From the NCBI GenBank assembly GCA_951406725.2, contig OX597842.1, positions 7,254,001 to 7,318,000 of the forward strand: DNA of 64,000 nt, written 5' to 3'. The notes under the pieces were generated by a model. The model searched no databases. It worked only from the letters and a program-made list of their open reading frames with translations, and was not told where the DNA came from. This DNA comes from Octopus vulgaris. Lineage: Eukaryota. Shown here one piece after another: positions 8,858 to 36,344 of the stretch; within the stretch, counting starts at the first letter, position 1; the number at the start of each line of letters is the position of its first letter. The position numbers and the translations under genes were made by a program.

Positions 8858-11800
8858 CTGCAAAAAATGAACAGTAAAGCATATATCTTTTGTTTTTGAT
8901 AATAAAGAAAAAATTGTAATATTTACCAGGATTTACTATTTTGCCACATACCGAAGTTTAGAAATAGCAGCCATAGAACCTTAGCTATTTCCTCTACTCT
9001 GGTATCCTTATCCCGTCCATACATTTGATTTTGCCTCTCTTCAAGACTAGCACACCACACTTCCTCAGTCCGAACTCCATTCTGATATCAGCACTGAAGG
9101 TAAATACTGTATCAACGAGGGAACTGACTTGGCTTCATAAAGTTTGAGGTCATCCGTGAATAACAAATGGTTGACTTTTTGTTGGTGGCTTTCGAATACA
9201 CACCCAGCTTTTGCTTTCCTCAGAATCAGTGTTAGTGGTATCAAGCACAGTACAAAGATCAGTGGGGACAGACAGTCCGTTTGGAAGATGCCCCTCCTGA
9301 TATCTACTGTCTGTAAACTTCTTCCATATGCTATCAGGTTCGTCCTCCCATTTGCCATACTTTTTCCAAGCAATCGCTCAACATTTGATGCAACCCTTCT
9401 GCTCACATGGCAGGACTCCATTTTTTCTTTTCCAGATGTTTGTACATTGACTCTGCAAGTATTCCAGTCAATAATTTCCACATATTATTATTATTATTAT
9501 TATTATTATTATTATTATTATTATTATTATTAAGGCAGTGAGCTGGTAGAATTGTTAGCACACTGCACGAGATGCATTTTTGTCCATTGCTATGTTCCGA
9601 GTTCAAATTCTGCCGAGGTTGACTTTGCCTTTAATACTTTCAAGGTCAATAAAATAAGTACCAGTTGAACACTGGGGTCGATGTAATCGACTCATTCCTA
9701 CCTCCCCTAAGCTGCTCTTGTGGAATAATTTGAAATAAAAATACTAATTATAATCATTATTATTATGAACTTGAGGTCGTTTCCTGGCAGAATTGTTACT
9801 GCACCAGAAAATATATTCAATAGTACCAGCCAAATAGACTCAAATTGATGTAATCAAGGAACCTGAAACTGATGACCTTGTGCATGAATCAGAAAGAATT
9901 ATTATTGTTATTATTAGCAGAAGTCATTTCCTTACCTTCTATCCCAAGAGTAATAGTTGCATTACAGGAGTTCTTGTCATAGAATCTCCAAAACAAATCC
10001 TCTCTCGTTATATTCTCGATGTAGAGAATAGAAGTTCTATGAATCTGCCTAACTACATATTTGCCACGATCGCAATATTCCTTATTGCACTCGATACTAC
10101 GGACCCTATTTCTCCAGACCACAGGCCTTTCCATATAGGGAATATCTTTAACATAAAGAGAGATACTTTGTCCGAGCACAGGGTTTCCTGCAATAAATAT
10201 ATGAATCATTATTATTGACTAGTTTCCCATATGAAAGATTTCAGGATTCATTTTTATCATCATCATTGTTTCAACACCTACTTTTACATATCTGGAATCA
10301 GAGTTTTCTTTATATAAAGATTTGGGACACTTCCTCTCGTGATATCACAGGTGATTGTATAACAAAGAGCCAGGACATTAAATAATGACGGTCATGGTAG
10401 GTGAACTTCAAGTAAAATTGTATGAGTTAAGAGAAAAAAATAAAAAAACAGAACTGAAAAGATAGTGTCTAGTTTAAGATGAGAAAAAGGTACTCCACTT
10501 ACCTTTCAAAATACCTATTTTGTACTCTTTTTTACATTGCCAACCTATTCAAATAGAAAACAAAAATATTTTCAGATTTTAAATTTTTGATTACTCTTTA
10601 CTCTTTTACTTGTTTCAGTCATTTGACTGCGGCCATGCTGGAGCACTGCATTTAGTCGAGCAAATCACCCCCGGGACTTATTCTTTGTAAGCCCAGTACT
10701 TATTCTATTGGTCTCTTTTGCCAAACCGCTAATTAACGGGGACGTAAACACACCAGCATCAGTTGTCAAGCAATGCTAGGGAGACAAACACAGACACACA
10801 AACATATACACACACATACATATATATATATATACAAATTGAGATAGGGGTTGTAAATGAAACCCTCCATGTGATAACATATATCCAATATACTGCTAGT
10901 GAAGTACCCATCAAAGTTAATACATAAATGTTAAGAATTGCGATGCAATTAATTCATTTACTGTATTATATGGGCAAAGGTAAAATGTTTTACCACAAAT
11001 TAATAATACAAAATAAGAAAATGGAGAAATACATCTAAATCAATTATCAACTACCAGATAATACCCAATCACATACTTTATTAAACCACTACATAAGAAC
11101 ATTAAGGTCAAACATAATAATATAGAACAAAACAGTGTACATGAAGGAGTAATATGATACAATAAGTATAATATGTATAAGAGGATATAAATATACACAA
11201 CATCTTACAGCTGTTTCGGCCATGCAGATAATGGTGTCTCATTTTAGTTATATTATCCATGTGTGATAGGTCAATATGTAGTTATAAATGAGACATTTAC
11301 AAAAATATCCCAAGGCCTCTTCAGAAATTATGAAATACAAACCAAATTAAATCTACACCCATATAAGTGTGGGTACATACCCATAATATATCATGTACAC
11401 ATACATATGAGTGCATATACTCATACTCCTATACATATATATATATATATATATATATACATAGATATACATGATAATATAAATAATATAAATCAATAAA
11501 CATACATATGTTCCATATTCAATGTTACAGTTTTTCAACTTAATATTTTGATATTACAATGTAGAAAACATACACATATTAATACCCAAATGCAGATATA
11601 CAGAGTCAAGAGTACATTATATTAATTTATATTTATTTCCAAAATGTCATTAACGTTAACAATGTTAACATCATTACCATTATCATTACCACTAATGCTA
11701 CCAATATCATTATTCTTATTATTAATAACACTAATACTAGCAAAACAACATATAGATCATATAGCAATATAATAGCAAAACCAAGGACAACAATAGTATT

Positions 11801-34900: not shown

Positions 34901-36344
34901 TTATATATAAAAGTGAGGTTGTGTGTCTGTCTCCTACGATTTAGATTCCTAACTACTCCCACATTTTGCGGTGCAGTTTAACCAAAACCGGGTATCTTAT
35001 AGTCGTGATTCATATCGAGACCGTCTGGGTATTAGCGCGCGTCTACGATGAGTCTACGATTTAAAAAAATTTACCATCAATTTTTCCCATTTTTAATCCA
35101 TTTTTGACATATATAAGGGAAGTAACTCTCTAAAATTTATTATTAAATCTCAGAACGTAAAAAGCTACAGTAACACCCCCCTTTGTGGTTAGCCATATTG
35201 AGATGGCTATTATACTTTACATCTCTAAAAATGCTTATATAATTATTTCCCTTACAAACCCGAGCAACGCCGGGCGATACTGCTAGTTGTTATTATTAGC
35301 AGAAGTCATTTCCTTACCTTCTTCCTTCAAAGAAATCGTTGCATAGCGATATTTCTTGTCGCGGAAAATCCAGTCCACATCTGCCTGTGATATATATTTT
35401 ATCAAAATAGTGGATATATTACCACTCTGCTGAACTTCTACTCTGCCAGATTTATAACATGTTCTATCACATTCAAAGCTTTTATTCTCATTTTTCCAGG
35501 TAACAGGTCGCTCCATGCTGGGTATTTCTTCAGTTTGAAGAGTCATGGTTCCTCCAAGTACAAAACTTCCTGAAATATATATATATATATCAATATTACA
35601 GACTAGTTTCCCATATGAAAGATTTCAGGATTAAATTTAAAAACAAAAACATGACTATAAACTGAGGGAAGAGAAAGAAATAAAAGAGAGAACTGAGAAG
35701 ATAGTGTCCAGTTTAAAATGAGAAACAGGTTTCTTACCTTTTTGAATGATTTTGTAGACTCTTTCACATTGTGAGCCTAAAAGAGATGAAGACAAACATA
35801 TTTTCAAATTTTACATTTTTGAGTATTATTGTCGTCGTCATCGGCGTCATTTAATATCCGTTTTCCATGCAGAAATGAGTTGGACAGTTTAACCAGAGTT
35901 GACAAGATGGAGAGCTGCACAAGGCTCCAGTGGGATTTAGCATGCTGGGTGCTTTTATTTGGCACCACATGAGAGCCTGTTCATGGCACTGCCATGTGCT
36001 TTTTATGTGGCAATGGCACAGAAATCTTGCAGGCCAATCTTCTTCAGCAGGGGAGTGACCTTAACATATCTGCTGTGGAGTACGGCTCTCTTGAGTACAG
36101 CAAGGCCCCAGGCATTTTGCTTGTTTGTCATCTTGTCTGAAAGGCAAGTGGGAGTTGTAGGGTGTGGGATGTTGTCTCACAGTTGCTGACAGTAAACTTC
36201 ATTTCTCCTTCTGACTAAGGTTCTAGCTGGTCAGCCAATACTGAAGGATTACCCACTAAAAAATAGAGCAAAAACAAATGAAAACTTACCATAAAAAATT
36301 GTAAACAAGGCAAAGAAGAAGAAGATGAATAGCTGACTGTCCAT
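28762..36344 (-). CDS. Paralogue B: 260-aa type-I membrane protein with two atypical Ig-like domains; join(36344..36290,35776..35738,35569..35318,30588..30547,30231..29980,28904..28762)
   Basis: Same six exons, lengths and splice sites as paralogue A, frame intact. 19 aa differences by manual comparison. Confidence 0.85.
29980..30231 (-). CDS. Paralogue B Ig-like exon D2
   Basis: 252 nt, canonical sites, 6 aa differences from A. Confidence 0.88.
30547..30588 (-). CDS. Paralogue B micro-exon 2
   Basis: Identical to 10503..10544. Confidence 0.8.
33202..35286 (+). mobile_element. Composite Helitron insertion present only in copy 2
   Basis: Starts TC, ends hairpin + CTAG, inserted at A|T with no TSD; empty site at 13089/13090 in copy 1. 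Confidence 0.85.
33721..34200 (+). repeat. 107-bp minisatellite, ~4.5 copies, inside the Helitron
   Basis: ATAAGACAGTAAGGTGTGATTTG recurs about every 107 bp from 33721. Confidence 0.9.
35318..35569 (-). CDS. Paralogue B Ig-like exon D1
   Basis: 252 nt, canonical sites; GSFVLGGTMTLQTEEIPSMERPVTWKNENKSFECDRTCYKSGRVEVQQSGNISTILIKYISQADVDWIFRDKKYRYATISLKEE. Confidence 0.88.
35738..35776 (-). CDS. Paralogue B micro-exon 1 (GSQCERVYKIIQK-G)
   Basis: 39 nt, canonical splice sites, 2 nt differences from A. Confidence 0.8.
36290..36344 (-). CDS. Paralogue B signal-peptide exon
   Basis: Identical to 14953..15007. Confidence 0.85.

Follow-up and report, generated by a model that had tools for sequence, protein, structure and literature searches.

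Signs of diversifying selection in a family of predicted Ig-domain membrane proteins of Octopus vulgaris

Described systems and the octopus locus

The CEACAM, CD2-CD58 and CD300 systems show pathogen-driven variation on the GFCC' face, include tailless or GPI-linked members and undergo conversion among paralogues; CEACAM N and CD2 D1 also lack the disulfide between strands B and F. The octopus genes described here resemble these systems in a membrane-distal Ig domain without the B-F disulfide, in GFCC' variation, in tailless members and in conversion among paralogues. They differ in that no sequence homology extends past the fold and in that the two octopus domains belong to one and the same octopod type. 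The Dpr/DIP wiring proteins of Drosophila, with two or three Ig domains, likewise form a multigene family, and the two-Ig-domain build and minimal tail recur in the octopus proteins. Canonical disulfides are retained in Dprs, which show conservation across flies, whereas the octopus family evolves fast, is amplified in tandem and is octopod-limited in its close matches. With respect to paired activating/inhibitory receptors of the KIR, LILR, CD300 and NITR type, no ITIM- or ITAM-bearing members were found among the octopus family proteins scanned, and A and B are not of the charged-TM kind.

In the Hydractinia Alr system, as described in two reports, a clustered multigene family encodes single-pass proteins whose atypical Ig domains have no B-F disulfide, the C-C' side is under diversifying selection, and variants are shuffled by conversion and unequal crossing-over (PMC9546547, PMC8282982). 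The octopus proteins share these traits but keep the C-strand Trp, carry a C-x3-C pair in C'/C'', split each domain between an A-strand micro-exon and a separate 249/252-nt exon, and have neither an Fn3-like spacer nor ITAM/ITIM; sequence searches returned no match to Alr. The polymorphic GRC/PTC2 regions of Biomphalaria are molluscan clusters too; they encode hyperdiverse single-pass proteins, their copies vary in structure, and the report on them proposes parasite recognition (PMC7494358). According to the same source, PTC2 proteins have no known domain besides TM and show greater synonymous than non-synonymous divergence (old haplotypes), whereas the octopus proteins have an Ig fold and omega exceeds 1 (PMC7494358).

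The window, by which we mean the whole 64,000-nucleotide stretch of O. vulgaris DNA analyzed (all positions below refer to it), holds two tandem units. Unit A (1..15842) extends left beyond the window and is collinear, at 95-99%, with unit B (20117..38090). Each carries one gene on the minus strand. Gene A begins with a signal-peptide coding exon (14953..15007, ATG at 15007) that matches O. sinensis RefSeq protein P0002; an acceptor lies immediately upstream, which implies a 5' untranslated exon that was not located. It is followed by micro-exon 1 (14159..14197, 39 nt), encoding the N-terminal strand of domain 1; exon D1 (13121..13372, 252 nt, phase 1-1), encoding strands B-G of Ig domain 1; micro-exon 2 (10503..10544, 42 nt), encoding the N-terminal strand of domain 2; exon D2 (9936..10187, 252 nt), encoding strands B-G of Ig domain 2; and a stalk and transmembrane exon (8715..8857) with a stop 3 codons past the helix. 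The corresponding exons of gene B are the signal-peptide coding exon (36290..36344), micro-exon 1 (35738..35776), D1 (35318..35569), micro-exon 2 (30547..30588), D2 (29980..30231) and the stalk and transmembrane exon (28762..28904), which also has an early stop. Intron 3 of gene B contains a repeat-rich insertion of ~2 kb (33213..35286) that begins ~30 nt past the D1 donor, is absent from A and is common to copy G5, and a segment of ~600 nt in intron 2 of gene A (13444..14047) has no counterpart in B. Contigs of one sequencing run, guessed to be RNA, end at the D1 and D2 exon edges and include a spliced-looking pair. A second read run (X11) behaved as DNA. Genes A and B are predicted to encode two-Ig-domain membrane proteins with almost no cytoplasmic tail.

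Fold and family

An AlphaFold2 model based on a 27-row alignment reached a pLDDT of 81, with the domains mostly at ~90, and was used instead of a single-sequence AlphaFold2 model of P0002 (pLDDT 42). The model predicts an immunoglobulin superfamily (V/I-set) fold, a Greek-key beta-sandwich with strands A'-B-C-C'-(C'')-D-E-F-G. All of the top 50 VIA-align matches and the Foldseek matches were Ig domains; for single domains the matches had Z of 8.9-10.6 and an rmsd of 2.4-3.2 over ~90 residues, and they included titin I-set, CD8a, CD300, CEACAM and antibody V domains at structural-match identities of 7-22%. Standard Pfam scans mostly miss this family: the best match of the window exons was I-set at E 0.1, and family member P0009 passes the I-set cut-off (E 1e-8). 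Atlas neighbours were V-set/I-set clusters at 0.88-0.91, and a sequence search of PDB returned nothing below E 0.48. Pfam matches to YafO and Cry1Ac domain VII failed the cut-off and were taken as chance, and titin-like and other long canonical Ig proteins (one a bird protein) were set aside as generic Ig matches.

The canonical Cys(B)-Trp(C)-Cys(F) pin is absent. The Trp is invariant and there is no Cys in B or F; instead, there are an invariant W-x-F-x-D in F and a Cys in C'. Other IgSF members without the pin exist, as stated in one report (PMC9546547), and its loss therefore marks an atypical subtype rather than an exclusion from the superfamily. The stalk measures ~20 aa, and the helix core of A and B contains no charged residue. 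Of 40 family proteins, 29 had a TM segment that could be detected, and these contained no ITIM and no ITAM motif (0 of each), although their annotations may be incomplete; the scanned tails therefore give no direct sign of immune signalling.

The octopod family comprises at least 74-83 exon matches in the assembly, mostly on one chromosome, in genes of variable domain number. Every one of the 58 distinct exons extracted from the family measures 249 or 252 nt and is free of stops. At 40/40 variable ectodomain positions, the state of O. sinensis P0002 matches that of some O. vulgaris copy, in a mosaic fashion. More distant are the uncharacterised Haliotis tandem-Ig membrane proteins P0044 and P0057, which share the pattern W...C-x3-C...TLxI...W-x-[FI]-x-D with the octopus family (hhalign probability 64%, E 6e-5); the common pattern suggests an Ig subtype of older molluscan origin.

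Neither the family nor its domain subtype or tailless design appears to have been described before; a fast-evolving Ig cluster as such is well known. No paper describing the family was found in a search of mostly open-access literature, and the family is not among the octopus expansions recognised in that literature (protocadherins, C2H2 zinc fingers, GPCRs and crystallins). Six O. sinensis/O. bimaculoides family gene ids had no matches in main texts, and six ids each had none in the supplements of PMC9712504 (one scanned file of which was unreadable), PMC11202624 and PMC13230822. The word "immunoglobulin" does not occur in PMC9068888, PMC13669787, PMC13230822 or the genome preprint of O. vulgaris. 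For the family, the literature and supplements searched contained nothing on tissue, cell type, induction or ligand.

Divergence among the copies

An earlier note had described the divergence between A and B as concentrated in the Ig exons and mostly non-synonymous. A codon-by-codon comparison returned exactly its counts, namely, 14 nucleotide differences in the 252 of D1 (12 non-synonymous, changing 11 aa, and 2 synonymous) and 8 in the 252 of D2 (7 non-synonymous, changing 6 aa, and 1 synonymous). As also claimed, the signal exon and micro-exon 2 have no differences, the TM helix is identical, and two losses of N-glycosylation sequons (N8T and N59Y) are real. In D1, 6 of the 11 amino acid changes alter charge. 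Micro-exon 1 has 2 differences, and the TM exon has 2 non-synonymous nucleotide differences, both in the stalk. The intron figures offered as background (2/380 and 1/310) were reproduced but come from unusually quiet introns and do not represent the unit, in which A and B differ at 213/14,916 aligned sites (1.43%, or 1.26% after masking). With overdispersion taken into account, D1, the most accelerated exon in the A-B comparison, is an outlier (negative binomial P = 0.007; 1/56 non-coding windows reaches 14), whereas D2 is not (P = 0.09; 3/56 reach 8); the excess over background between A and B is therefore clear for D1 and not for D2. On its own this pair, at 19N:3S, is compatible with neutrality (P = 0.13-0.25). 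Both states of all 14 D1 differences occur in another gene copy, and these differences are therefore not base-calling errors. Of the 8 D2 differences, 7 are confined to a single copy (6 in A and 1 in B) and seen in the assembly only; the raw reads of run X22 did not reach the gene's unique parts.

The comparison was extended to six close copies on the same chromosome (A, B, G1, G2, G5 and G6). G5, a near copy of B, was excluded from the D1 tests; G6 has no D2 or TM exon, micro-exon 2 of G2 lies outside the anchored alignment, and locus L098 has no splice pair. Counted as minimum distinct mutations among G1, G2, A and B, non-synonymous changes number 23 at 187 sites in D1 (P = 3e-8) and 22 at 186 sites in D2 (P = 1e-7), against 76 at 2,728 intron sites, i.e., ~0.12 per site in both Ig exons versus ~0.03 in introns. 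Synonymous changes (2/65 in D1 and 3/66 in D2) do not differ from introns (P = 0.7 and 0.43). Against overdispersed non-coding windows, of which the highest of 25 holds 12 changes, the probabilities were 0.0006 for D1 and 0.001 for D2. With only variants present in at least two copies retained as an error-proof set, the excess persisted in D1 (12/187 versus 10/1,855; P = 7e-8 with five copies and 0.02 with four) and in D2 (7/187 versus 22/4,273; P = 1e-4). The pooled count of 46N:6S gives an omega of 2.2-2.7 (P = 0.04-0.008 across kappa 1-3.4). In our own fit, M2a was preferred over M1a for D1 (P = 3e-5, with 16% of sites at omega ~10), a result inflated by conversion (39 parsimony steps versus ~30 distinct mutations), and not significantly for D2 (P = 0.08). 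Among other subfamilies, 17 disjoint pairs, picked closest-first from 214 with identical exon pairs skipped, had a pN of 0.049 versus a pS of 0.025 (P = 2e-4), although the excess over flanking introns was just 1.3-fold (0.049 versus 0.037). Judged from these alignments, amino-acid-changing differences build up at three to four times the intron rate, whereas silent ones keep to that rate; this pattern is diversifying selection. The earlier suggestion of such selection, weak from A and B alone, is supported once the six close copies and the other subfamilies are added. The stated concentration in Ig exons holds for A versus B and not for the cluster, in which the stalk/TM exon is equally accelerated (16 non-synonymous changes at 105 sites). 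This last acceleration counts against a pure ligand-face model, which does not predict it. RNA editing was rejected as a cause: the differences are genomic, and 31/46 biallelic exon columns are transversions.

The variable residues of D1 lie mostly on the C-C'-C''/F-G half of the modelled domain (12/34, versus 4/39 elsewhere; P = 0.012, post hoc). Those of D2 tend to the opposite, ABED half (12/41, versus 5/36 on the GFCC' half; P = 0.17 alone), and the interaction between domain and half has a post hoc P of 0.015. The ligand-binding surface invoked in the earlier note is thus plausible for the GFCC' half of domain 1, as modelled. The pattern provides testable residues, D1 codons 26, 28, 30, 33, 36, 68, 70, 74 and 78.

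Two rival explanations were weighed. One, also raised in the earlier note, is that the exon excess was imported from more distant family members by gene conversion limited to exons. Six changes grouped at D2 codons 40-45 divide G1/G2 from A/B/G5, and the conserved intron flanks could act as homology arms. However, imported tracts would lift synonymous divergence, which is not lifted, and no distant donor was found: distant exons are at most 60% identical and share exact words of 10-12 nt at the longest (51 examined, in a family with ~20-30 further exons). Incompatible site pairs are also equally common in non-coding DNA (29/45) and in D1 (45/78), which places conversion throughout the unit and among close copies, and we consider the exon-limited form highly improbable. 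The other holds that the exons are neutral or relaxed, that introns have been homogenised by conversion and that the mosaic consists partly of polishing errors or uncollapsed haplotypes of an assembly rich in repeats. The lack of significance of N versus S for A and B on their own fits this, as do the identical intron patches beside D1 and D2. In addition, the unit divergence of 1.3-1.4% is near the O. vulgaris heterozygosity of 1.22% given in one preprint (bioRxiv 10.1101/2023.05.16.540928), so that some copies could be alleles. Neutrality, however, cannot produce non-synonymous sites raised three- to fourfold with synonymous sites at the intron level; the excess is replicated in 17 further pairs and survives the removal of singletons, variants are shared with an independent O. 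sinensis protein, none of the 58 family exons contains a stop, and omega would be unchanged if the copies were alleles rather than paralogues. The neutral or relaxed reading is very unlikely and already largely refuted.

Candidate functions of the family

Rapid turnover and omega above 1 in tandem clusters of surface-protein genes are the usual mark of host-pathogen conflict. The octopus locus has the tandem paralogues, omega >1 and conversion mosaicism of a positively selected multigene receptor cluster. We hypothesize, with a probability of roughly 0.55, that the diversifying selection acts on putative surface proteins and that its driver is the encounter with microbes or parasites at the outer, GFCC' face of domain 1. 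Point mutations newly arisen on that exposed face would be favoured, and close copies would recombine them into new surfaces by unequal crossing-over and short tracts of conversion. The tailless proteins may serve as receptors of the capture or decoy type, or they may be proteins of the host surface that evade the adhesin of a pathogen; any signalling would pass through a partner chain. In snails, the GRC/PTC2 clusters control parasite resistance, according to the report on them (PMC7494358).

It is possible, although unlikely, that the variants form a self/non-self or cell-identity code in which each one binds, on another cell, either its own kind or a matching variant, with an advantage for rare specificities. 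Such a code could take the form of homophilic binding like that of Hydractinia Alr or of a code like that of Dpr/DIP. Short tails fit adhesion or identity tags, the variable halves of D1 and D2 are opposite ones (a post hoc observation), and Dpr/DIP is among the fold matches, though it does not surpass the other Ig domains there. Octopuses live alone and do not fuse and so lack the ecological driver of Alr, and wiring codes are usually conserved rather than evolving at omega >1. The clustering of atypical Ig domains without the B-F disulfide and the selection on the C-C' side do parallel Alr, as two reports describe it (PMC9546547, PMC8282982), but its Fn3-like spacer, single-exon domains and ITAM/ITIM tails are absent here. 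That these are surface proteins of gametes or of the reproductive tract, with sperm competition or sperm-egg recognition behind their diversification, seems to us doubtful. Gamete recognition proteins typically show omega >1 and tailless anchoring, the combination found here, where the excess includes the membrane-proximal stalk. Octopus gamete-recognition genes do sit in the high dN/dS tail, according to one study (PMC13669787), but with >70 domain exons and variable domain number the family is bigger than known gamete-recognition families. Six family ids were also not found in an O. sinensis gonad transcriptome supplement, a weak point given that the id scheme may differ. About equally doubtful is a more speculative proposal, that chromosome C29 carries a cephalopod histocompatibility-like complex. 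Its dozens of tailless atypical Ig proteins would give each octopus an individual surface signature, with faces re-specified by selection and short conversion tracts and read by matching family members through GFCC' of domain 1 and ABED of domain 2. Octopus arms show behavioural self-recognition, and this proposal, if true, would supply the missing molecular basis on which the tissue and arms of an octopus tell self from non-self.

To our knowledge, the immune and self-recognition receptors of cephalopods are largely unidentified. A large, intact, expressed-looking Ig family with omega >1 is a candidate surface-recognition diversifier in an invertebrate without adaptive immunity. If the reading of an arms race with microbes or parasites is true, the family would be a candidate immune-recognition system for cephalopods. 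It provides series of natural alleles and could bear on the disease resistance of octopuses in aquaculture.

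Gene structure and close copies

The window (C29:7,254,001-7,318,000 of the assembly, G000, C29 being the chromosome) lies within a 2.8-Gb genome. By self-comparison it contains a tandem unit (positions 1-15,842 versus 20,117-38,090; 95-99% identity, with several large indels), and each unit carries on the minus strand one gene, A or B, whose coding sequence is split over six exons: signal (55 nt), micro-exon 1 (39 nt), D1 (252 nt), micro-exon 2 (42 nt), D2 (252 nt) and stalk plus transmembrane (TM) helix. The nearest named proteins are P0001 (Octopus vulgaris) and P0002 (O. sinensis, XP_036369874, "uncharacterized"), and the independent RefSeq model of the latter has exon architecture and joints identical to those of A and B. 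Two contigs of run X17, which we guessed to be RNA, align at 9,936-10,186 and 13,119-13,368 and leave sequence beyond the exon edges unaligned, as would be expected of spliced transcripts. The window also holds a 67-bp satellite array (53190-57480; ~64 copies, 96-99%) that abuts a 100-N gap (57481-57580) and whose unit is similar to a portion of a dispersed repeat, and a 107-bp tandem repeat of 4.5 copies (33719-34203) within an insertion of B's intron 3.

Genome searches recovered six close D1 exons, five D2 exons and five TM exons. Within 160 kb of sequence examined, two further copies, G1 and G2, stand in tandem with A and B on the minus strand; ~300 kb away, an inverted copy (L038-L042, G000:C29:7607061-7648013; 96-99% identical) duplicates gene B together with the 5' half of A and may be a paralogue or an uncollapsed haplotype. 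It bears G5, which hardly differs from B, and G6, which has only signal, micro-exon and D1 and is cut in intron 3 at the border of the inverted copy. The D1 frame of G6 runs ~60 codons into the intron, so G6 may be pseudogenic or may encode a secreted protein with a single domain. In the TM exon (window 8715-8760; L032/L035), A, B and G5 have a stop codon three codons past the helix, whereas G1 and G2 retain a mostly basic tail of 8 residues. These two groups diverge by ~10% over the stalk/TM exon, and nearly all of that divergence is non-synonymous.

Amino-acid change and exchange among copies

An earlier note had described the divergence between A and B as concentrated in the Ig exons and mostly non-synonymous. 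This observation is real, and its counts were reproduced exactly, both for exons (D1, 14 nt, 12 non-synonymous and 2 synonymous, 11 amino acids; D2, 8 nt, 7 and 1, 6 amino acids) and for introns (2/380 and 1/310). The contrast places D1 above background but was flattered by the introns picked, the whole unit differing at 213 of 14,916 aligned sites; with overdispersion allowed for, only D1 counts as an outlier (P = 0.007; D2, P = 0.09). The A-versus-B ratio of 19 non-synonymous to 3 synonymous changes does not depart from the neutral ratio (P = 0.13 to 0.25). For all 14 D1 differences both states are present in another copy; seven of the eight D2 differences are private (six to A, one to B), and aligned reads gave no confirmation of them. 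Contigs from another sample (run X11; window 10080, 10166 and TM exon 8722-8801) carry extra substitutions missing from the assembly copies, including non-synonymous D2 changes, one of which matches the O. sinensis residue K166; further alleles or copies thus segregate.

Among the close copies, 14 of the 15 D1 pairs (the exception being B/G5) differ by 8 to 17 nt in 252, and introns differ by 1.2 to 2.3%. Distinct mutations were counted per alignment column, which makes the count insensitive to recombination. In G1/G2/A/B, non-synonymous changes occupied 23/187 sites in D1, 22/186 in D2 and 16/105 in stalk/TM, versus 76/2,728 in introns (P about 1e-7 each), and synonymous changes (2/65, 3/66 and 2/36, respectively) were at the intron level. 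The non-synonymous excess holds under a negative-binomial null (P = 0.0006 for D1, 0.001 for D2) and with singletons removed; all copies pooled gave 46 non-synonymous to 6 synonymous changes (dN/dS [omega] 2.2 to 2.7, P = 0.04 to 0.008). A codon model fitted to the most parsimonious tree favored M2a over M1a for D1 (P = 3e-5) but not significantly for D2 (P = 0.08), a test given less weight because conversion inflates it. The pattern was replicated independently in other subfamilies, where 17 disjoint pairs, each the closest available, gave pN 0.049 versus pS 0.025 (P = 2e-4) and flanks stood at 0.037. The close copies show selection for amino-acid change together with reshuffling, and we put the probability of selection at roughly 0.9.

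Mutually incompatible site pairs make up 45/78 in D1 and 29/45 in noncoding sequence; because incompatible groupings are also found at noncoding sites, exchange among copies is unit-wide. At 40/40 variable ectodomain positions the O. sinensis protein has a state known from some O. vulgaris copy, with only two new residues, and reads as one more mosaic. The alternative put forward earlier, that conversion limited to exons and drawn from other family members caused the excess, was rejected because no distant donor was present among 51 other exons examined (≤60% identity, shared words of 10 to 12 nt) and imported tracts would raise synonymous divergence, which is not raised. Within one gene, D1 and D2 are 56% identical and their intron flanks ~80%, with a perfect 32-nt patch upstream and 57/58 nt downstream (minus strand; window 13051-13120 versus 9866-9935 and 13373-13540 versus 10188-10350). 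Short conversion tracts would leave such patches, as would a conserved splicing element; a similar 20- to 40-nt intron flank is conserved across the family.

Predicted fold and the wider family

The family domain has invariant columns L10, W24, C33, S52, W66, F68 and D70, and its alignment contains no B-strand or F-strand cysteine. AlphaFold2 with a 27-row alignment predicted two beta-sandwiches (pLDDT mostly about 90), whose top structural matches were all Ig domains. With strand letters assigned by hand to DSSP segments of this model and faces tested post hoc, the variable residues of D1 appear to favor the C-C'-C''/F-G half (12/34 versus 4/39 elsewhere; P = 0.012), and those of D2 may lean to the A'-B/D-E half (12/41 versus 5/36; P = 0.17). 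Three of the four D1 sequons lie on the quiet half, and two of those three toggle between copies.

Searches with three further exons returned at least 70 to 83 matches each, mostly on C29, and the 58 distinct exons from 90 loci are all 249 or 252 nt long, spliceable and stop-free. The bulk of the family lies at G000:C29:16.5-27.5 Mb (L007-L030, L047-L106) and C29:0.33-0.35 Mb, where several clusters hold dozens of intact exons. Relatives annotated in O. vulgaris, O. sinensis, O. bimaculoides and Argonauta, each either without a name or wrongly named, have one to six domains of this type plus a stalk, a single helix and a short tail; distant matches occur in Haliotis. O. sinensis LOC115225115 has many annotated isoforms with differing domain combinations, hinting at alternative exon use. 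Several annotated relatives (proteins P0013, P0019 and P0048) run past the last Ig exon and end in intron flank read as coding; these are incomplete models or else secreted forms that retain the intron.

Possible agents of selection

CEACAM, CD2 and CD300 domains usually bind through their membrane-distal GFCC' face. Alr2 is likewise described as binding through this face (PMC8282982). Host-parasite conflict would be the selecting agent that best fits sustained omega above 1 and family-wide copy turnover, as it does for snail GRC/PTC2 (PMC7494358); given selection, contact with microbes or parasites is somewhat favored as the driver. A scan of the 29 family proteins (of 40) in which a helix was detected turned up neither ITIM nor ITAM; because signaling tails are lacking, the proteins may act in capture, decoy or escape rather than as self-contained signaling receptors. 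The variation may instead serve a self or cell-identity code of the kind described for Alr (PMC9546547). It may also serve gamete recognition.

Ig clusters that evolve rapidly are a familiar type of system. The octopus family differs from Hydractinia Alr, paired receptors and PTC2 in the membership features tested, and both its domain subtype and the splitting of each domain over two exons are its own. The open-access literature searched held neither a description of the family nor expression data for it, nor do the available portions of PMC9068888, PMC13669787, PMC13230822 and bioRxiv 10.1101/2023.05.16.540928 describe it.
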